From positions 1-34,470 of IMG/VR virus record IMGVR_UViG_2917875804_000002: a stretch of 34,470 nucleotides of DNA; one strand, 5' to 3'. The notes beneath the pieces are model-generated. The model worked only from the letters and a program-made list of their open reading frames with translations, was not told the origin of the DNA and searched no databases. A program made the translations under genes and the position numbers. Source of the DNA: a virus. Its lineage: Duplodnaviria; Heunggongvirae; Uroviricota; Caudoviricetes. This document shows, piece by piece, positions 1 through 34,470 of the stretch. Positions within the stretch are counted from its first letter, which is position 1. The number at the start of each line of letters is the position of its first letter.

Positions 1-634
1 TTACTGGATACTATTTGAAATAAGAAAGGAATTGCTAGGGTTATCAACGTTAGCATTAAGGCTGCTATCGCAATTATAAAGCCAGTTTTTTTTCGCAATG
101 ATTTTATTGATTTCTTTCGGAAGTCGTTTATCAAGTCCTGCAAAATCCTTTCCCATTCTAGAAAGTTGATCATCATCCAATTTATTTACGATTTTTCCTT
201 GGTAACCTTTAGTCGGTATTATTGTTTTAAATAATAACATTCGGGCTACTGCAGAATTTTGTGTCAATGAGAATGGTTCTTTTGACATATTTACAAGATA
301 TATTGAAATTATGCCATTATATCCAGGGTCAATATGCCCTGGATTCGTCATGATAATTCCATTTTTTGATAGTGTGTTTCTTGGGAATATTACACCAGCT
401 AAATTTTTTTGCAAGTTGGAATTTTTCATTTAACTCTAATATTACAGTTTCCCCTGGCATCAGGATATGGTTGTTACGTGTTTTTTTATTGTCTTGACAG
501 TCTGGTATATGTATTGTTTTTACAGAGAGATCAATGCTTGCAGATTGAACTTTAAATGTTCCATTTAATACCGTTAATGGATCAAAAATGTTGCCTCGCT
601 GAATTTCATCATTGATTTCTATTTCAGACAGCAT
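1..634 (-). CDS. dCTP deaminase/dUTPase-fold protein with C-terminal extension (cargo); reading frame broken by apparent 1-nt insertion in T7 run 404-410
   Basis: ORFs 329..634 and 1..429 overlap in different frames; N-part MLSEIEINDEI...NGTFKVQSASIDLSV and C-part NLAGVIFPRNTLSKNGIIMTNPGHIDPGYNGIISIYLVN resemble E. coli Dcd by eye (RIDPGWSG-type motif); RBS-like AGGA upstream of ATG at 634; strongly AT-rich. Confidence 0.6.
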
Positions 635-4259: not shown

Positions 4260-5113
4260 GCACCATCCTGAAATGGGCGGGAAATAAAACCGCCATTATG
4301 TCCGAACTGAAAAAACATCTTCCTGCTGGCCCGCGACTGGTTGAACCTTTCGCGGGTTCCTGTGCAGTGATGATGGAGACGGATTACCCCAGCTATCTGG
4401 TTGCGGATATTAATCCTGATTTAATCAATCTCTATAAAAAGGTTGCTGCTGATTGTGAGGCGTTTATATCTAGCGCCAGAATTTTGTTTGAGGAAGCAAA
4501 CAGGGAGGTGGCTTATTACAACATAAGGCAGGAGTTTAATTACTCCACTGAAATTACTGATTTCATGAAAGCGGTATATTTCCTGTATCTCAATCGTCAC
4601 GGTTACCGTGGTTTATGTCGCTATAACAAGAGCGGGCATTTCAACATTCCCTACGGTAATTATAAAAATCCGTATTTCCCTGAAAAAGAAATTCGCGCAT
4701 TTGCAGAAAAGGCCCAGCGAGCAACGTTTATCTGCGCCAGCTTTGATGAAACGCTGGCGATGTTGAAGGCGGGGGATGTGGTGTATTGCGATCCGCCGTA
4801 TGACGGTACGTTTTCCGGCTATCACACTGACGGCTTCACTGAAGATGACCAGTATCACCTGGCATCTGTTCTTGAACATCGGTCATCAGAAGGACATCCG
4901 GTCATTGTTTCTAACAGTGACACATCCCTGATCCGTTCGCTGTATCGCAATTTTACTCACCACTACATCAAGGCAAAACGCAGCATCGGCGTAGCAGCTG
5001 GTGAGAGTAAATCTGCAACAGAAATCATCGCTGTTTCTGGGGTGCGCTGCAGGGTGGGATTTGATCCTTCGCGTGGCGTGGATAGTTCTGCCGTGTACGG
5101 AGTGCGTGCATGA
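4256..5113 (+). CDS. dam: DNA adenine methyltransferase (Dam-like, D12 class N6-adenine MTase)
   Basis: N-terminal KWAGNK and EPFAGSCAV (AdoMet motif I), DPPY catalytic motif ([10 protein letters not shown]). Confidence 0.85.
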
Positions 5114-7524
5114 GCCATGCTGATATGAACAACTGCAGCGGCTTTAACGAGGCCGCCGCAGCATTCTCATGGAACAGCCCGAAAAAGGCCATTAACCCTT
5201 ATCTGGACCCGGCAGAAGTTGCGCCGGTTTCTGCGCTTTCAAACCTGATCACTCTGTACGCTACCGATAACGAGCAGGAACAACTGCGCCGCGAGGCACT
5301 GAGTGATCAGGTCTGGGAGCGTTATTTCTTTAATGAATCCCGTGATCCTGTCCAGCGCGAAATGGAGCAGGATAAGCTCATTAGCCGGGCAAAGCTGGCG
5401 CATGAGCAGCAGCGTTTTAATCCGGATATGGTCATTCTGGCGGACGTCAACGCCCAGCCTTCCCATATCAGCAAGCCGCTGATACAACGTATTGAATACT
5501 TCAGCAGCCTGGGCAGGCCAAAGGCTTATTCCCGCTATTTACGTGAGACGATTAAGCCATGTCTGGAACGACTGGAGCATGTACGCGACAGTCAGCTATC
5601 TGCATCTTTTCGCTTTATGGCAAGCCATGAAGGGCTGGACGGCCTGCTGATCCTGCCTGAAATGAGTCAGGATCAGGTGAAACGCCTGTCCACCCTGGTA
5701 GCTGCGCATATGAGTATGTGCCTTGATGCAGCTTGTGGCGATTTGTATGCCACCGATGACGTTAAGCCAGAAGAAATCCGCAAGACATGGGAAAAGGTGG
5801 CAGCGGAAACCCTGCGTCTGGATGTCATCCCGCCTGCGTTTGAGCAACTCCGCCGGAAAAGAAACCGCCGTAAACCCGTGCCCTATGAACTCATTCCGGG
5901 GTCGCTGGCGCGTATGCTGTGCGCCGACTGGTGGTATCGGAAATTGTGGAAGATGCGTTGCGAATGGCGGGAAGAGCAGTTGCGTGCTGTTTGCCTGGTC
6001 AGCAAAAAAGCATCTCCCTATGTCAGCTATGAAGCCGTGATGCATAAACGTGAGCAGCGCCGTAAGTCGCTGGAGTTTTTCCGTTCTCATGAACTGGTGA
6101 ACGAAGACGGCGACACGCTGGACATGGAGGATGTGGTAAACGCCAGCAGCAGCAACCCTGCGCATCGCCGCAATGAGATGATGGCCTGTGTTAAAGGTCT
6201 GGAGCTTATCGCGGAAATGCGCGGTGACTGCGCCGTTTTCTACACCATCACCTGTCCGTCACGTTTCCATTCCACGCTAAATAACGGCAGGCCCAACCCG
6301 ACTTGGACAAATGCGACGGTAAGACAAAGCAGTGATTATCTGGTCGGCATGTTTGCTGCATTTCGTAAGGCGATGCACAAAGCCGGGTTGCGCTGGTATG
6401 GCGTGCGGGTGGCTGAGCCGCATCATGACGGCACAGTTCACTGGCACCTGTTGTGTTTCATGCGCAAAAAAGACCGCCGCGCCATTACTGCATTGTTGCG
6501 TAAGTTTGCTATCCGTGAAGACCGCGAGGAGCTGGGTAATAACACGGGGCCACGCTTTAAGTCTGAGCTGATAAACCCGCGCAAAGGAACGCCGACTAGC
6601 TACATCGCGAAATACATCAGTAAGAACATTGACGGGCGTGGTCTGGCTGGCGAGATCAGCAAGGAAACGGGTAAATCTCTGCGTGATAACGCTGAATACG
6701 TTAATGCCTGGGCGTCTCTGCATCGTGTTCAGCAATTCCGCTTCTTTGGCATTCCGGGGCGTCAGGCTTACCGTGAACTGCGATTGCTGGCTGGTCAGGC
6801 GGCAAGGCAACAGGGTGACAAAAAAGCAGGTGCGCCGGTACTGGATAACCCGCGCCTTGATGCCATTCTGGCTGCAGCTGATGCTGGTTGTTTTGCCACC
6901 TACATCATGAAGCAGGGCGGCGTACTGGTTCCCCGTAAATATCACCTCATCAGAACCGCTTATGAAATCAACGAAGAGCCGACCGCCTATGGCGATCACG
7001 GCATTCGTATTTATGGCATCTGGTCACCCATTGCAGAGGGCAAAATCTGCACTCATGCCGTGAAGTGGAAAATGGTTCGTAAGGCCGTTGACGTTCAGGA
7101 GGCGGCAGCCGACCAGGGCGCTTGCGCCCCTTGGACTCGTGGCAATAACTGTCCCCTTGCTGAAAATTTGTACCAACAAGGGAAAGACAAATCAGCTGAT
7201 GGGGATACCAGAACGGATATCACCCGCATGGATGACAAGGAGTTGCACGATTACCTGCACAGTATGAGCAAAAAAGAGCGCCGGGAACTGGCAGCAAGGT
7301 TACGCCTGGTTAAACCGAAACGGCGTAAAGACTACAAACAGCGAATTACAGACCATCAGCGACAGCAGATCGTCTATGAGCTGAAGTCCAGAGGATTTGA
7401 TGGTAGCGAGAAAGAGGTCGATTTACTCCTTCGCGGCGGCAGTATTCCGTCAGGAGCAGGCCTGCGTATCTTCTATCGGAACCAGCGTTTGCAGGAAGAT
7501 GATAAGTGGCGGAACCTGTATTAA
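5110..7524 (+). CDS. A: replication initiation endonuclease (P2/186 gene A, rolling-circle initiator)
   Basis: 804-aa ORF at the position of gene A; HxH-type metal motif TVHWHLL; start overlaps dam stop. Confidence 0.85.
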
Positions 7525-7618: not shown

Positions 7619-7638
7619 TACTGTATGTAAAACCAGTG
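7619..7638. promoter_or_regulatory. LexA box (SOS operator) upstream of small ORF + DinI-like gene
   Basis: TACTGTATGTAAAACCAGTG contains CTG-N10-CAG (7621-7636) and matches about 14/20 of the E. coli consensus TACTGTATATATATACAGTA; located about 50 nt upstream of ATG 7684. Confidence 0.5.
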
Positions 7639-7683
7639 GTTAAGTATACAGTATTATCTACCCACAGTGAGATAGGAGGGAAG

Positions 7684-7872
7684 ATGCAGGATTATTTTTT
7701 AGAGTCGTTGAAACTCCAGCGAATTGATTTTTTTCTTAAGCTTGTAGTGGCCAGTGAATGTAGTGATCAGGAAAAAGAGCTTGCGCTGCTTTGGATTTCA
7801 GAACTGACGGATGAACTCATGGCAAAAATCAGAACCCACGAATATAACCGCTCAATGGATGTTGTTAACTGA
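7684..7872 (+). CDS. small SOS-controlled protein, possible Tum-type antirepressor analogue
   Basis: 62-aa ORF with AGGAGG RBS (7673-7678); position equals 186 tum (LexA-regulated operon before the DinI homologue). Confidence 0.4.
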   Translation: MQDYFLESLKLQRIDFFLKLVVASECSDQEKELALLWISELTDELMAKIRTHEYNRSMDVVN

Positions 7873-7882
7873 GGGGTAATTT

Positions 7883-8116
7883 ATGCGCATTGAAATAATG
7901 ATCGATAAAGAGCAGAAGATTAGCCAGTCTACCCTGGACGCCCTTGAATCCGAGCTTTACCGCAATCTGCGCCCCCTGTATCCCAAAACGGTAATTCGCA
8001 TCCGCAAAGGTAGCTCTAACGGTGTGGAACTGACCGGACTGAAACTGGACGAAGAAAAAAAACAAGTGATGAAAATTATGCAGCAGGTATGGGAAGACGA
8101 CAGCTGGCTGCATTAA
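7883..8116 (+). CDS. DinI-family protein
   Basis: 77 aa MRIEIMIDKEQKISQSTLDALESELYRNLRPLYP...IMQQVWEDDSWLH closely parallels E. coli DinI by eye (MRIEV...WE..D.W). Confidence 0.75.
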   Translation: MRIEIMIDKEQKISQSTLDALESELYRNLRPLYPKTVIRIRKGSSNGVELTGLKLDEEKKQVMKIMQQVWEDDSWLH

Positions 8117-8229
8117 GAAACGTTGCCCCCAGGAGGATTCATTCTGATGGGGGCTGGTTTGGGCAACGAGTGAAACGAGGCGTAAAGTGGTCGGCCTGTT
8201 GGCAGCGTTGAAAAGCGAAAGCCGCAATA

Positions 8230-8649
8230 CTATAAATTAGTTTTTATTAGATAGTGCCTTTGTGCCCCTGCTTTAGGGAAATCAGGTAATGACATTTGAA
8301 GTATATAACCCTGTTTTTCATAAAAAGGGAGCGCCTGGAAGCTAAATGTATCGACAAGGCCATGAATACAACCGTTCATCACACCTTCTTTCTCAGCCAT
8401 GCTCATAAGTTTGCTACCCAAACCGCCACTCCGTGCTGATTCACTCACCCAAAGATAATCAATACACAGCCATGGACCTTTCCTGTCCGCAATTAACCCA
8501 CCTACCATCTCTCCGATTTCATTTCTGCAGTAGACACCGATCTGTCCATTTTTACTAAAATCGATAAACTGAGCATTGTAGCTTCTTAGCCCCGCTAACA
8601 GTTCTTCTCTATCATATTCAGTAACTTTATGAACTACTTGAATGTTCAT
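8230..8649 (-). CDS. GNAT-family N-acetyltransferase (cargo at the old/tin-equivalent position)
   Basis: 139 aa; acetyl-CoA binding motif region [12 protein letters not shown]; AT-rich; oriented opposite to early operon, just inside cos. Confidence 0.7.
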
Positions 8650-8964
8650 ACATATCCGTTTTAGTGATTATTTTATTCAGTGCTAAATGTTATAGATAAG
8701 TTTACTTTATGTTTCAATGTATTGTTGTAAATTTAATCAATTTACCATTTCCGGGTCCGTTCCTTGCTCACAGCGAACCTTTAGCTTTGTTAGCTCGAAT
8801 ATGTCGGTTTTTAAGTGGTCAATCAGATACGTACCTTCACCCCACTCGTTAGTGCATGTCTATGCCGCATGAATCCGCATGATCGTTTGAGGATCGTTTT
8901 TGCTGAGGCCCCCCAGAACTGGCGGGCTTTTGCTTATGTCATGCAGGTGCATGAAAACCACTAC

Positions 8965-8983
8965 ATAAAGCGGGCAGGCGTGG
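8965..8983. other. cos-like cohesive-end sequence of P2/186 family
   Basis: GGCGTGGCGGGGATACGAG: first 13 nt match my recollection of the 186/P2 19-nt cohesive end (GGCG[T/A]GGCGGGGAAAGCA[T/C]); GC-rich island in AT-rich surroundings, located between gene A side and portal side. Confidence 0.4.
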
Positions 8984-9084
8984 CGGGGATACGAGCGCGC
9001 GCGGGCCATAGAACTAACTTATTGTATCTTGTAAACATTTGAGCATGTTGTAAGGAACAAAACCCTAATGTTATCATCAAAAAA

Positions 9085-10369
9085 ATGTTAGTTGGTTTAG
9101 AAGGAATGATGATGCAAAAGCAAAGGGTTTCTCAAGTATTCGTTCCCGGAGGTATGCCAAAGTTAACTTATGTTGAACGGACTGGGGGCGAGATAAAAGA
9201 AAGACTTGAGAGTGCAAAAGATAATTTGTGTAAGTTGGTTACCTTGACGGGACAAACCAAATCCGGAAAGACTGTACTTACACAAATGGTGTTTCCCTTT
9301 ACTGATCCGAATGTCATATGGATTGATGGTGGCGGTATTGCTGTCGAAAATGATATTTGGGAGCAAGTTTTAGACAAATTAGATATTTACACTAATGAGG
9401 AGGTCAACGTTTCTGATTCCTCATCAACTAATATCTCAGGCAAGGTTCATGCATCTGGTAGTGCCCTTGTTGTAAAAGGAGGAGGAGAGGCAGGGGTTTC
9501 GCAGACCGATGGGTCTTCTAAAGGTAAAAAAAAATGCAAGAACGATTACCCCAAAAAATGCGGCGATTAAAGCCTTAGCAGATAGTCAGGCTAGCCTTAT
9601 TATTGATGACTTTCATTACTTAGATAGAGAAATGCAGGGCAGCTTTGTAAGAGCAGTAAAGCCTTTAGTGTTTCATGGTGTACCTGTAATATTAATTGCT
9701 ATTCCACATAGAAGATACGATGCGATAAAAGTTGAGAGGGAGATTACTGGAAGATTAGAAAATATAATGATGCCATATTGGTCAGAAGATGAATTAAAAC
9801 AGATTGCATCATCGGGTTTTCCTCTTTTAAATATATCTGTATCTCAAGACGTTATAGACTTGCTTGCATCTGAAGCTTTAGGTAGCCCACATTTAATGCA
9901 AGAATTTTGCAAAAGTTTGTGTGCTGCTCATTCAATAAAAGAAACATCTGAGCAGACAGTGACAATATCTTCTATTGATGACTCACTGTTTAGAAATGTA
10001 GCTGAATCAACAGGGAAAGTGGTATTCGATAAATTAGCAACTGGCCCTCGCCAACGTTCCGATAGGTTGCCTCGTTTATTAAAGAATGGCGAGAGAGTTG
10101 ATATTTATAAAGTTGTCTTATATGCACTCTCTAACATGAAACCAGGAATGCAAACTATTCAGTATGAAGAGTTACGTACTGCTATTAGAGAAATAGTCGC
10201 AGAAACACCTCCCCAGGCTAATGAGGTTACACGAGTTCTTGAAAAAATGAGCGAGATCGCATCTAGTGAAGAGGCTTCAACACCGGTTATAGATTGGGAG
10301 AGAGAAGAACAAAAACTACATATTACCGATCCATTTTTTGCGTTTTACCTAAAATGGCGTGATCATTAA
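9085..10369 (+). CDS. P-loop NTPase of unknown family (cargo); frame broken in A9 run 9526-9534; true start probably ATG 9106-9112
   Basis: ORFs 9085..9570 and 9509..10369 overlap by 62 nt; Walker A GQTKSGKT in N-part, Walker B-like LIIDDFHYL in C-part; AT-rich; GAAGGA RBS before ATG triplet. Confidence 0.6.
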
Positions 10370-10374
10370 AAACG

Positions 10375-10400
10375 ACAGAACCGTCATATGACGGTTCTGT
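10375..10400. terminator. perfect 26-bp palindrome between convergent NTPase and portal genes, probable bidirectional terminator
   Basis: ACAGAACCGTCAT/ATGACGGTTCTGT, perfect 13+13 inverted repeat, flanked by A-run upstream and T/A-rich stretch downstream. Confidence 0.45.
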
Positions 10401-10409
10401 ATAATTTCA

Positions 10410-11445
10410 TTATGACCCTGCTAGGTAATACTTATCGAAAATAATAACTCTCTCGCCAAGCCAGTCGTTTAGTTCTTCCATTTGCTTCTGTAATGGCATT
10501 AATTCGTTCCGTACAAAAACTCGACTCGCCTTCTCCACATCCCCAAAACCCCCAACATTATTCGGCATTATCCCCATCATTTGCGGCGGCACGCGGTGTG
10601 CCGCCATCATGTCATCCCGGCTCACGTTCTTGATGTTCAGAAATTCATCCTTCGCTGCGACTTCTGACAACGGGATGATCTGAAGCCCGTCTTTTTTTGC
10701 CATTAGGCGAGTACATAAACAGGTTGCGGAAGTTACCAGGACCTTTGGCACTTTTCATCGCGTTGCGGAGATTGTTCACATCCTCCTGATTCTGCGCGGC
10801 ATCGGTCATATACATGATGAAGCCTGCATGGCTGCCGTTGATGTAATATTTGCGTCGGAACAGCGTGGCGGACTCATTGAGCAGGGCGGACGGAATGGCA
10901 GAAAGATAGCCGGGCAGGCCGTAGATCTCCTGGTTAATGTCCGGTTCCATCAGATGAAAAATGCTGCCTTTCGTGAACTGATACGGCTGGGTTGTCATAC
11001 CGTATTGCACAAACCAGTAGGTATCCAGGTCTAACCCGCGTCGGGTGTATTTTGCCAGAGCAGGCTCAAGGGCGATAACTTCACCGAAGCGGTTCGTGCG
11101 TTTCTCCAGGTAGGCGTTACCAAATACCAGATAGTCCTGCACAAAACGTGAAAAAGCCTGCTGGCTGAGCAGCGGGTGGGGGATGTAGGTACTGGTCAGA
11201 ATGTTGCATTTCACCGCAATTGGTGAACTGTGATGCACGGCGGCGCGGAAGGTGCGCGCCAGTCCGTCAAAGCTTACTGGCGGCTCATACCAGCGATCTG
11301 TCTGTACGCATTCCACATAGTCCAGTAGTTCGCGGCGGTCCAGAACAGGAACGGGATCACCGAAGCTGAATGCTTCGGCTGTAGTTTGACTTTTATGCTG
11401 GATCTGGTTCGTCGACGCAGCGCGGTTCTTCTTACTCTTTCCCAT
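10410..11445 (-). CDS. Q: portal (capsid portal protein, P2 gpQ-like); frame broken in T7 run 10691-10697
   Basis: ORFs 10645..11448 and 10410..10751 overlap; combined length about 345 aa; convergent partner of terminase, position next to cos. Confidence 0.85.
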
Positions 11446-13211
11446 CAAAAAATCTCCACAATATTACTGGTATTGGCGGACTCGCCCTGCAGTGGTTCGT
11501 TAAACAGTGCGTGCATTGTTGCCCAGGCCAGATCGGCGTGGCTGGCTTCTTCGCTGCGGCTGGCTTCATAGGTTGGGCGGTTGCCACTGGCGGTGGTTGC
11601 GCGACGGATTGCCATGAATGACTGCGCAATGTCGGTGTGCCCGGCGTCAAACTCCAGACGGCGGTGGCTGATAATGTCGTAGGCCTTGAGTACCAGGGCG
11701 TTTTTAACGTTGGGGTTGTAGACAAACTCCCGGACGGCAGGAAAGAACGCTTTCACGTTCTCGTAAACCCCGTGACCAACGCCGGTTGAGTCGATACCGA
11801 TATAAGTCACGTTGTACTGTTCGGTCAGTTTTTTGATGGCGTCAGCCTGGGCGCGGAAGTCCATCCCGCGCCACTGGTGACGCTCAAGAATGCGGAACTT
11901 ACCACCCGGCACGGCTGGCGGTGCCACCACCACGCATCCGGCGCTGTCGCCGTTTTGCGTACCTTTTGCCGGGTCATAACCGATCCACACTTCGCGCCAG
12001 CCAAACGGGCGCAGCGCCAGTGCATGAAAGTCGGTCCAGACTTCCCAACTGTCCACCATGCACGCCTGCAGCTCGCTGAGCGGAAACACGGACGCGAGAT
12101 CGTCCACAAACTCGCACATCAGCAGGTTCTGGTATTCGTCCGGGCTGTACTCCATGCGCAACTGGTCGAGGTCGAACAGGTTACAGCCGCCGCGCACCGC
12201 ATCTTCCACGGTGACTATCTGGCGGTACTGCCCGTCTGCGCACAGCAGGCCGGGGGCCAGATTGCTGTGGGACAGGTCGATGTCCACCTTATCGGCTTTG
12301 TTGCGCCCACGGTTGAACAGCGCACCGGACCAGAATGGATAAGCACTGTGGGTCAGACTGGATGGCGTGGAAAAATAGGTCTGCCGCCATTTTTTGTGAA
12401 TAGCCATACCGGAAGCCACTTTGCGCAGCTCCTGGAATTTCGGGATCCAGAAATATTCATCCAGATACAAGTTGCCGTGGTAACTCTGGGCCGTGCGGGC
12501 ATTGGTTCCGAGGAAGTAAAGCGTGGCCCCATTAGGAAGCACCATCGGATCGCCTTTCAGCTCCACCTCCACTTCTTTGGCGAAGTCGATGATGTACTGC
12601 TTAAAGACGTGGGCCTGTGCCTTACTGGCGGAAAGGAAAATCTGGTTACGTCCGGTCAGCAGGGCGTCAATCAGGGCTTCACGGGCAAAATAGAAGGTCG
12701 CGCCGATCTGGCGTGACTTCAGCAGGTTGCGGATGCGGTTGGTTTTTCCGGCTTCCCACCAGTGGCGCTGGTAGTTGAACATGGAGGAATGAAAGATTTC
12801 TTCCAGCTTCTCAATCTGTTCATCGGTGAAAACATTCTTTTCCGGCTGACGGCGCGGGCCTTTGTTACGGTTGGCGACGTTAGGGTTTAAGTCGGCTTCG
12901 TTGCCGCCATTGTTAAACTTACCGATCCGCGCATGGCGCTCCGACTGGCGCGCCAGCAGGTCAATCTCTTTGAAATCTTTCCCTTCTTTGTGCTCCTTCA
13001 TAATGAGCTGGCAGTAGCGTGCGGCGGTGGTGAGCTGCATCTGATCCAGCGGCCCATAGTCACCCCACTTGTCGCGTTTTTTCCAGCTGTGAACGGTTGC
13101 AACTTTCTCGCCCAGCATTTCAGCAATGCGGGCTACGCGGTATCCCTGAAAGTACAGCAGCATGGCCTGCCGACGGGGATCGAGATCTGCGGGTGTCAGT
13201 GTGGTGTTCAT
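11445..13211 (-). CDS. P: terminase large (ATPase) subunit, P2 gpP-like
   Basis: 588-aa ORF upstream of portal on same strand, divergent from scaffold gene. Confidence 0.9.
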   Translation of the reverse strand: MNTTLTPADLDPRRQAMLLYFQGYRVARIAEMLGEKVATVHSWKKRDKWGDYGPLDQMQLTTAARYCQLIMKEHKEGKDFKEIDLLARQSERHARIGKFNNGGNEADLNPNVANRNKGPRRQPEKNVFTDEQIEKLEEIFHSSMFNYQRHWWEAGKTNRIRNLLKSRQIGATFYFAREALIDALLTGRNQIFLSASKAQAHVFKQYIIDFAKEVEVELKGDPMVLPNGATLYFLGTNARTAQSYHGNLYLDEYFWIPKFQELRKVASGMAIHKKWRQTYFSTPSSLTHSAYPFWSGALFNRGRNKADKVDIDLSHSNLAPGLLCADGQYRQIVTVEDAVRGGCNLFDLDQLRMEYSPDEYQNLLMCEFVDDLASVFPLSELQACMVDSWEVWTDFHALALRPFGWREVWIGYDPAKGTQNGDSAGCVVVAPPAVPGGKFRILERHQWRGMDFRAQADAIKKLTEQYNVTYIGIDSTGVGHGVYENVKAFFPAVREFVYNPNVKNALVLKAYDIISHRRLEFDAGHTDIAQSFMAIRRATTASGNRPTYEASRSEEASHADLAWATMHALFNEPLQGESANTSNIVEIF

Positions 13212-23802: not shown

Positions 23803-24813
23803 ATGAAAGAGAATAAAATACGTTCTGCCGATGGCGTGAGAGGTTTCGCTTTGATGATTGTTGTGGTGATGCATGCTACGGGACTATTCTTTCCCTCACT
23901 TCATGATCATCTCGGAGGTACGGGGCAGCCCGGTGTTTGGTTGTTTTTTGTTCTTAGCGCCTTTTTGTTGACACATAAATTTATTAATTCTGGTTTTTCG
24001 TTTTTGAATGTGTTGAGTTATCTTTTAGGGCGAACAATAAGGATATTACCGATTTTTTATATTGCAGTATTAATTTATTACCTTATGGGATTTTATGATT
24101 TAGAGAAAATGAAATCGATAATTTCATTTGATAGTACTTACATCCATTTCTGGACTATTCCGATAGAATTCAAGTTTTACTTTTTGTTGCCGATTGTGGT
24201 TTATCTCGCATCTAGTATCCAGAAAGTTGCAGGTAGAAAATATTCTTTGTTGTTTTTGATATTGTTAACCTTAGCGTTCGCTTTTATATACCCTTATACG
24301 GATGACGAAATCAACGGTAGGCTACCGTATTACATTCCTGTTTTTATGTATGGAATTATAATTGCGTTTATGTATAACTATTTTCAAATTAAAATATCAT
24401 CTCTCGTTAGTGATGGGGTGTCAATTGCGATTATATTAATATTTATAATGTTGACCCCTCCTTTTCAGGGGGCTAATGGTTGGCTGGGTAATAAATTTGT
24501 GGTATTAGGGCCATTTATTGCTCTCTTTGTATATTTGCAAGTAAATTCCAGTGGGTATGTAAGCGCGGTTTTATCTTCAAAAATCATGGCGGATTTGGGG
24601 AAATATAGTTTTTCAATTTATTTGTTTCATATAATGATAATTTTTATTGTTTATCCTAAATTTTTGGATAATGTTACTGCATACTTAGTTACTATAGCTT
24701 TATGTATTGGCGGTGGGGCTATTGCCTATCATTGCATTGAATCTCCCTTGGAATCGTTCAGACATAAGCTTATGAAAAGAATAACGCAGGCTTATCAGAA
24801 TCAAAATATTTAA
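23803..24813 (+). CDS. acyltransferase family 3 integral membrane protein (OafA/Oac-like O-acetyltransferase), cargo at Z/fun-equivalent locus
   Basis: 336 aa, about 10 hydrophobic segments, N-terminal RGFALMIVVVMH (conserved His in first TM), very AT-rich, own upstream region. Confidence 0.75.
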   Translation: MKENKIRSADGVRGFALMIVVVMHATGLFFPSLHDHLGGTGQPGVWLFFVLSAFLLTHKFINSGFSFLNVLSYLLGRTIRILPIFYIAVLIYYLMGFYDLEKMKSIISFDSTYIHFWTIPIEFKFYFLLPIVVYLASSIQKVAGRKYSLLFLILLTLAFAFIYPYTDDEINGRLPYYIPVFMYGIIIAFMYNYFQIKISSLVSDGVSIAIILIFIMLTPPFQGANGWLGNKFVVLGPFIALFVYLQVNSSGYVSAVLSSKIMADLGKYSFSIYLFHIMIIFIVYPKFLDNVTAYLVTIALCIGGGAIAYHCIESPLESFRHKLMKRITQAYQNQNI

Positions 24814-33993: not shown

Positions 33994-34470
33994 ATGATAT
34001 TATTTGTTGGATTTTTGTTGATGGAAATTGTTATGCCTCAGATTAGCCGGACCGCACTGGTACCCTACAGCGCGGAGCAAATGTATCAGTTAGTGAATGA
34101 CGTTCAGTCTTATCCTCAGTTTTTACCAGGGTGCACTGGAAGCCGGATTCTGGAGTCCACTCCTGGGCAGATGACCGCTGCGGTAGATGTGTCTAAGGCT
34201 GGGATCAGCAAAACGTTTACTACCCGCAACCAATTGACCAGTAACCAAAGTATTCTGATGAGTCTGGTTGATGGACCGTTTAAGAAATTGATCGGCGGCT
34301 GGAAGTTTACGCCGTTGAGCCAGGACGCGTGCCGTATTGAGTTTCATCTCGACTTTGAGTTTACCAATAAGTTGATTGAACTCGCCTTTGGTCGCGTGTT
34401 TAAAGAGCTGGCAGCTAATATGGTGCAGGCTTTTACTGTTCGTGCAAAAGAGGTCTACAGTGCCAGGTAA
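33994..34470 (+). CDS. ratA: RatA/PasT (YfjG) SRPBCC-family ribosome-association toxin homologue
   Basis: 158 aa, MPQISRTALVPYSAEQMYQLVNDVQSYPQFLPGC...; divergent from smpB as in E. coli K-12; window ends exactly at its stop codon. Confidence 0.85.
   Translation: MILFVGFLLMEIVMPQISRTALVPYSAEQMYQLVNDVQSYPQFLPGCTGSRILESTPGQMTAAVDVSKAGISKTFTTRNQLTSNQSILMSLVDGPFKKLIGGWKFTPLSQDACRIEFHLDFEFTNKLIELAFGRVFKELAANMVQAFTVRAKEVYSAR

Follow-up and report, generated by a model that had tools for sequence, protein, structure and literature searches.

Analysis of a 34,470-nucleotide stretch of DNA (IMG/VR record IMGVR_UViG_2917875804_000002; the window), which represents a P2/186/Fels-2-like prophage, reveals a solitary GNAT N-acetyltransferase gene on the minus strand (positions 8230–8649) that is carried on a mobile cassette of 573 bp (8195–8767). 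The gene is best explained as a self-contained lysogenic-conversion ("moron") cassette, with a small-molecule, detoxifying substrate preferred, and we assign this reading a probability of about one half. It is favored by the GNAT identity and intact cofactor motif of the product, the limits of the cassette, the purifying selection on the gene, the monocistronic arrangement and breadth of its relatives, its rarity in E. coli, and its independence from the neighboring cargo. In the proposed mechanism, the cassette would derive from a gene family of enterobacterial chromosomes, would have been copied along with about 120 bp of the DNA that lies upstream of the gene, and would have landed in the left (DinI-side) half of the gpA–cos–gpQ hotspot of P2. 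In the lysogen, its own promoter would presumably drive transcription of the gene, opposite in direction to the phage early and SOS operons, and the stand-alone enzyme would move the acetyl group from acetyl-CoA onto a substrate amine with no need of a partner gene. The Escherichia host, in which no chromosomal copy is detectable by DNA comparison, would then be supplied with an activity that chromosomal orthologues give elsewhere, most likely an N-acetylation that inactivates a toxic small amine (an antibiotic, antimetabolite or peptide).

The open reading frame (ORF) starts with ATG and encodes a protein of 139 amino acids (aa) and 15.6 kDa with an isoelectric point (pI) of 6.3 (6.28). It matches the Pfam family Acetyltransf_1 with an E-value of 3.8e-10 (40.5 bits against a curated cutoff of 20.7), and also Acetyltransf_7 (38 against a cutoff of 27), Acetyltransf_10 and the phage family phrog_3810, "acetyltransferase" (1.3e-23). 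The acetyl-CoA-binding motif A, which follows strand β4 and has the pattern (Q/R)-x-x-G-x-(G/A), corresponds to R73-S-G-G-L-G78, in agreement with the original prediction of a 139-aa minus-strand GNAT with an acetyl-CoA motif. Among 74 homologues, R73 and G78 are invariant and G76 is conserved in at least 90%; all 25 invariant residues of the family, R73, G78 and Y110 among them, are present in the window protein. The ratio of nonsynonymous to synonymous substitution rates (dN/dS) is 0.065–0.10 with respect to the copies of Salmonella, Buttiauxella and Yokenella, and 0.10–0.19 among the P2-borne copies. Because the invariant residues are all kept and dN/dS is low, the gene is under purifying selection, and it is predicted from its sequence to encode a functional, catalytically intact, acetyl-CoA-dependent transferase. 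An AlphaFold2 model of the protein (predicted local distance difference test score, pLDDT, 88.2; predicted template-modeling score, pTM, 0.83) displays a minimal mixed α/β GNAT fold, and a Foldseek search with the model gives the same picture; a search of a viral structure library yielded no close relative. The modeled fold confirms membership in the GNAT superfamily and cannot assign a substrate, as fold searches do not separate substrate classes.

A profile search of the PDB places the protein more precisely. The best matches are 1Y9W from Bacillus cereus (9.7e-24) and 2G3A from Agrobacterium tumefaciens (3.2e-19), and the next chain follows only at 3.1e-06. The profile thus assigns the window GNAT to a 1Y9W/2G3A subfamily of minimal GNATs that is set apart from other GNATs, which provides the placement that had been called for when the gene was first noticed. 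The window protein shares with both chains a size of approximately 140 aa, an identity of 31–38% over the core, and the motifs LWV...R-x-G-x-G and D-[ST]-F-S-F-Q-A-x-x-F-Y-x-K-x-G-Y. It differs from them in its setting: 1Y9W and 2G3A are chromosomal proteins of distant phyla, known as structural-genomics entries, whereas the window copy is prophage cargo. The two crystal chains superimpose on the model with a root mean square deviation of 12–15 Å over the full length and of 1.6–1.7 Å over 104 residues, the C-terminus being the part that superposes poorly. A strand swap in the crystal chains is a possible cause of this discrepancy.

The family is large and widely distributed. A search of the protein database gave 346 relatives, and relatives are found in at least 569 species-representative genomes. 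Proteins identical to the window copy (100%) occur in Escherichia sp., copies of 84–94% identity in Salmonella, Buttiauxella and Yokenella, and copies of 54–71% identity in Providencia, Pectobacterium, Pantoea, Erwinia, Klebsiella, Enterobacter, Citrobacter, Raoultella, Kosakonia and others; at about 40% identity, the family reaches Clostridium and others, on large replicons. In the 54–71% group, the gene stands on the chromosome as a single cistron, with synteny inside each genus. The Providencia copies adjoin mtlR, the Pectobacterium copies lie between lptG and a JmjC-type gene, and those of Klebsiella, Enterobacter and Raoultella occupy one common neighborhood, with further contexts that include Citrobacter. 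No neighboring gene is conserved across the family, and the gene is always monocistronic. In Klebsiella, Providencia and Pectobacterium, its GC content is in line with the genomic value. Such breadth, together with the tracking of genomic GC, is expected of an old enzymatic function and not of a patchy defense gene. Orthology to a characterized housekeeping acetyltransferase, an outcome that had been set against the original prediction, holds only in a weaker sense: the chromosomal family is clear and widespread, and no member of it has been characterized.

Two further copies lie in phage-related DNA. In a Leclercia lambdoid prophage, a GNAT of 71% identity is located between the gene of the Q antiterminator and the holin gene, at a moron site (contigs L031/L032, 6001–6429); here the family was recruited as phage cargo a second time, independently of the P2 hotspot. 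In Salmonella, a copy of 86% identity that belongs to a cluster of 1243 sequences (contigs L004–L008, GNAT at 8001–8420) resides in a mosaic, sopE2-linked prophage-remnant island, near a NEL-type E3-ligase effector gene and higBA. The Salmonella island copy and the P2 cassette have only the ORF ± 10 bp in common.

The limits of the cassette were set twice independently, by comparison with other P2-like prophages and with chromosomal loci. In blastn comparisons with P2-like prophages that carry other cargo, the backbone match ends at 8194 (8126 in some), restarts at 8768 (or 8851) and runs to 9002, where a second variable segment begins that extends from 9003 to approximately 10460, before the portal gene. 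On the chromosomal side, the match covers 8194–8774 in Buttiauxella gaviniae (87.5% nucleotide identity, up to the end of that contig), 8195–8737 in Yokenella regensburgei, and 8194–8718 in a genome labeled Salmonella enterica s1, the nucleotide identity of the cassette to these three loci being 83–88%. Since the limits of the cassette coincide with the limits of chromosomal homology, the GNAT gene moved with its own upstream DNA. Apart from the ORF, the cassette therefore contains 35 bp 3′ of it and 118 bp of AT-rich upstream DNA (8650–8767, minus strand) that was transferred together with the ORF and presumably holds the native promoter. It is flanked by 78 bp of backbone 3′ of the DinI-like gene (8117–8194), common to P2-like prophages without the GNAT, and by a conserved cos-proximal backbone (8768–9002). 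The span first proposed for the locus, 8117–8964, covers the cassette and also takes in the backbone at 8117–8194 and cos-proximal DNA from 8768 onward. No repeats flank the cassette within the window, and terminator scans, hairpin searches and RNA folds of the cassette flanks, including 8117–8194, gave nothing above shuffled sequences.

The locus lies in the gpA–cos–gpQ hotspot, between gpA (5110–7524) and the portal gene and beside the cos core at 8977. In P2, this hotspot holds tin and old, and many of the cargoes found there protect against phages (PMC9122126); the position originally described as that of old and tin, just inside cos, is thus confirmed. The sequence GGCGTGGCGGGGA, which we take to be the core or start of the P2/186 cohesive end (cos), occurs once in the window, at 8977–8989, and the GNAT ORF lies approximately 330 bp from it. 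Because backbone homology resumes between the two variable segments, the old/tin position consists of two cargo slots split by the conserved cos core. The cos-proximal backbone, which holds that core and divides the left slot from the right, is seen in approximately 1280 E. coli records. In otherwise homologous prophages, the left slot is filled by unrelated genes. The right slot (9003–10460, plus strand) carries in the window a nucleoside triphosphatase (NTPase) gene similar to PDC-S59, independent of the GNAT. The Pfam architecture of the GNAT is already present among the hotspot loci of Rousset et al. 2022, Table S5 (PMC9122126). The hotspot itself and the occurrence of the GNAT architecture in it were known before; the present comparison divides the P2 hotspot into two independently assorting slots.

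The original prediction had offered, as one option, that the GNAT is a partner of the NTPase across cos. In this interpretation, the GNAT and the NTPase, or the GNAT and the DinI-like operon on its other side, would form a split two-gene system straddling cos. The GNAT and the NTPase are indeed adjacent in the window and in a near-identical contig (L018). However, GNAT copies of 98–100% amino acid identity face at least seven right-slot cargoes other than the NTPase: a Cap4-type nuclease with a 552-aa protein (contigs L019 and L020); in E. coli, an HNH-like protein with two others, a 290-aa protein, or IS100 with a retron St85 system; and a DUF262-like 593-aa protein, a 477-aa protein or a 181-aa protein. 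A further combination, with AAA_21 and SIR2_2, is listed in Table S5 of Rousset et al. 2022 (PMC9122126). Conversely, the NTPase (99.3% nucleotide identity) occurs in three E. coli genomes opposite a 111-aa acidic protein, an HNH endonuclease, or IS1 with DUF6236, and never opposite the GNAT. The DinI-like operon is equally separable, as approximately 1280 E. coli records match the cassette flanks and lack the GNAT, and the five of these loci that were inspected directly carry the operon. The two slots assort independently across related prophages, the co-occurrence check showed no co-conservation of the GNAT with neighboring cargo, and the NTPase partnership is thereby refuted; for a split system in either form, the remaining probability is negligible. 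The cassette itself is rare in E. coli. Of 5426 complete genomes, 7 carry it, in each case in the interval from the DinI-like gene to cos, and no copy is detectable at the DNA level in E. coli K-12-type hosts.

The NTPase region (9085–10369, plus strand) matches the PADLOC model PDC-S59, a candidate single-gene system, in two halves (2.5e-09 and 1.1e-24), and also phrog_6841. Intact copies of 418–427 aa are present in L018 and in the three E. coli genomes. Over 4.1 kb, the window differs from the short-read contig L018 only by three extra homopolymer bases, at 9079, 9526 and 10692 (A7 versus A6, A9 versus A8, and T7 versus T6, respectively). The extra A at 9526 splits the NTPase gene into 9085–9570 and 9509–10369, and the extra T at 10692 splits the portal gene into 10410–10751 and 10645–11448. 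The split genes are most likely assembly errors and not pseudogenes.

An unpaired toxin-like effector had also been proposed originally, which would correspond to an orphan GNAT toxin that acetylates aminoacyl-tRNA in the manner of TacT, AtaT, KacT and ItaT, and that, with no antitoxin encoded beside it, brings about abortive infection. The GNAT fold, the location on a mobile element, and the defense-rich slot are consistent with such a role, and the first two are shared with the known toxins. TacT/AtaT-type toxins are basic proteins of approximately 160–175 aa with a tRNA-binding surface. The window protein, by contrast, is shorter, at 139 aa, and is not basic, its pI of 6.3 lying close to the family median of 5.9. 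Solved GNAT toxins are absent at E ≤ 1 in the single-sequence search of the PDB, from the best 60 of 99 matches at E ≤ 10 in the profile search, and from the top 50–60 fold matches. No antitoxin-sized gene, and none of the RHH/DUF1778 antitoxin type, is found upstream of the GNAT in the window or at any of approximately 140 loci, and solitary orthologues are stably kept in core genomes. In the window, the only minus-strand ORF upstream of the GNAT (8860–9009, 49 aa) spans the conserved cos region and lies outside the cassette, and no same-strand antitoxin-sized ORF is present inside the cassette; the original observation that none precedes the gene on its strand is therefore upheld. The evidence speaks strongly against the toxin, which we consider highly improbable, and even taken together the toxin and the NTPase partner have only a very small probability.

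A 111-aa ORF that occurs near some GNAT copies was considered as a candidate antitoxin and rejected, as it forms a separate cassette 855 bp away and is found alone too. In three IMG/VR prophages, this ORF stands in tandem with the GNAT, on the same strand and 855 bp upstream, and a sequence of approximately 45 bp equivalent to window positions 8749–8793 borders the 111-aa cassette on both sides. These borders suggest exchange by recombination at shared junctions. The ORF also occurs alone in E2348/69 and many other strains. Its product, a very acidic protein (pI 4.05; WP_001059831 in E2348/69) without Pfam or PADLOC annotation, is the cargo most often found in the left slot in place of the GNAT (6811–7146 in contig L038, also present in L039 and L040; 4193–4528 in L017).

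A role in single-gene anti-phage defense or superinfection exclusion deserves more weight. Expressed from the prophage, the GNAT would acetylate a protein of the incoming phage, or else a host factor or small molecule on which the phage depends, and so block infection; it would be the enzymatic equivalent of tin and old, which occupy this slot in P2. The gene agrees with tin and old in orientation and low GC content, and shares with them the slot and the character of an AT-rich module swapped between similar prophages. Its neighborhood points the same way, as the hotspot holds many protective cargoes besides tin and old and its Table S5 loci include the GNAT architecture (PMC9122126); furthermore, six of eight tested loci of unknown-function genes in P4-like satellites were protective, and an antiviral role is predicted for 15–32% of the P2 proteins of unknown function (PMC13586616). 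A precedent exists in Brc113, a GNAT-domain protein encoded by a solitary integron cassette that is reported to protect E. coli against phage (bioRxiv 10.1101/2024.07.02.601719); compared by description only, both are GNAT-domain genes that stand alone and travel in a small cassette of a mobile element, and they differ in the vehicle, which is an integron for Brc113. The 71% relative at the Q–holin moron site of the lambdoid prophage would also fit. On the other hand, tin and old, for which phage exclusion has been demonstrated, are not related to the GNAT. The GNAT occupies only the DinI-side sub-slot and matches no PADLOC model (PADLOC-DB v2, E ≤ 0.1). In the prophages seen, a recognizable defense system is always in the right slot, and the left slot holds varied small genes. 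Moreover, in hundreds of species the orthologues of 55–70% identity are stably kept in the core genome and away from defense islands, whereas defense genes are patchy. On balance, a defense function is possible but unlikely. The same limited credence applies to the broader proposal of a one-gene immunity or counter-immunity module, in which a GNAT of a housekeeping family would have been recruited to the P2 hotspot and separately to the Q–holin site.

Another possibility considered is a protein acetyltransferase, akin to AcrVA5-like counter-defense enzymes or RimI/Naa-like N-terminal acetyltransferases, with which the prophage would adjust host physiology or disable a host defense. AcrVA5 is also a small GNAT of a mobile element, and its nearest solved fold neighbor is reported to be 1Y9W (PMC8949011). 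The likeness holds at the level of the general fold only, however, since AcrVA5 has 92 aa and is not detected by sequence from the window GNAT: it gives no PDB match at E ≤ 1 with the single sequence and does not appear in the best 60 of the 99 profile matches at E ≤ 10. It is also missing from the top 50 of the Foldseek search. If a resident prophage expressed an anti-defense gene, its own host would be weakened, and the core-genome orthologues point to a general substrate. Such a protein-modifying role is rather improbable.

The preferred reading, a detoxifying lysogenic-conversion enzyme, takes up the small-molecule acetyltransferase proposed originally, which is plausible. Its closest relatives, 1Y9W and 2G3A, are uncharacterized. 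Several observations weigh against it. "Detoxification" is a guess from the behavior of the class, and the literature that mentions 1Y9W and 2G3A names no substrate for either. The detoxifying GNATs AAC(6′)-Ii, streptothricin-type OrfE and tabtoxin resistance protein differ from the window protein in that there is no family-level sequence match. No NCBIfam resistance model was matched, the sole NCBIfam match being PRK03624 with 20 bits against a cutoff of 124. A resistance-plasmid or integron context was likewise not found, the plasmid matches being chromids, megaplasmids and small unannotated contigs. Chromosomal relatives often lie beside TetR-MFS, RND, MATE or EamA genes; the apparent association with efflux was dropped after distinct neighbor clusters had been counted with genes farther off as an internal control (11 of 148 clusters within two genes versus 25 of 469 farther away; Fisher p = 0.22). 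The label "blasticidin S-acetyltransferase" on some Pectobacterium homologues was also set aside, as an unverified name for which no characterized relative could be traced. Expression of the gene in the lysogen would depend on the transferred upstream region, where a σ70-like site (TTTACA-16-TAAAGT at 8731–8704, 9 of 12 matches) may act as the promoter; such sites are no commoner in this region than in shuffled sequence, and AT-rich cargo may be silenced by H-NS. Finally, the hotspot is a documented anti-phage reservoir, which favors a defense role (PMC9122126; PMC13586616).

The remaining features of the window are those of a P2-like prophage. From left to right, the integrase (698–1675), a CI-type repressor, an early operon, a Dam methylase, the replication endonuclease gpA (5110–7524), a small SOS-type operon, the GNAT gene and cos are followed by the second cargo gene, the portal and terminase genes (from 10410) and the late genes. 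The SOS-type backbone operon (7619–8116, plus strand) is convergent with the GNAT gene and consists of two LexA-box-like sites, a small ORF (7636/7684–7872; phrog_698) and the DinI-like gene (7883–8116; Pfam DinI, 4e-23). The two sites overlap at 7619–7653, 5′ of both reading frames (2 matches versus 0.06 expected), and with the DinI-like gene they fit a putative SOS-induced operon like that of phage 186. The operon is kept unchanged in prophages without the GNAT. The GC content of the GNAT ORF is 40.5% (35.7% at third codon positions), in comparison with 53.3% for gpA and 56.5% for the terminase, so that both parts of the original description, AT-rich (40.5% against 53–57%) and convergent with a LexA-boxed SOS operon, are borne out.

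A second acyltransferase gene is present elsewhere in the window. It encodes a membrane acyltransferase of 336 aa of the Acyl_transf_3 family (23803–24813, plus strand; Pfam 2.2e-26), and lies in an AT-rich island (31–42% GC) after the gene for tail-fiber assembly, where P2 has its Z/fun cargo locus. Its product may be a surface-polysaccharide O-acetylase, and the gene hence a lysogenic-conversion gene. No megablast match to it was found in the 5426 E. coli genomes. A link between this gene and the GNAT was rejected, as the Acyl_transf_3 gene is not conserved in another GNAT-bearing prophage. Both ends of the window look like host DNA: at the left end, a dUTPase/dCTP-deaminase-like ORF beside the integrase runs to the window edge (1–429, minus strand), and the right end carries a Polyketide_cyc (RatA-like) ORF (33994–34470, plus strand).

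The hotspot is known and the GNAT family is large; this gene adds to them a GNAT enzyme cargo of a familiar moron type. Should the GNAT do no more than detoxify a small molecule, it would be a further lysogenic-conversion gene, mainly of interest for annotation. If the gene acts in immunity instead, acetylation of one phage or host target would suffice to exclude competing phages; a phage-resistance phenotype would add an acetylation-based defense by a single gene, define a new single-protein class of such systems, and provide the first function for the 1Y9W/2G3A family. E. coli K-12-type hosts, with no copy at the DNA level, offer a clean background for gain-of-function screens of the family, relatives of which are carried by at least 569 enterobacterial species. 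For the biology of P2-like prophages, the locus indicates that hotspot cargo need not all be defense, and that the left slot can take a chromosomal enzyme with its own promoter region.

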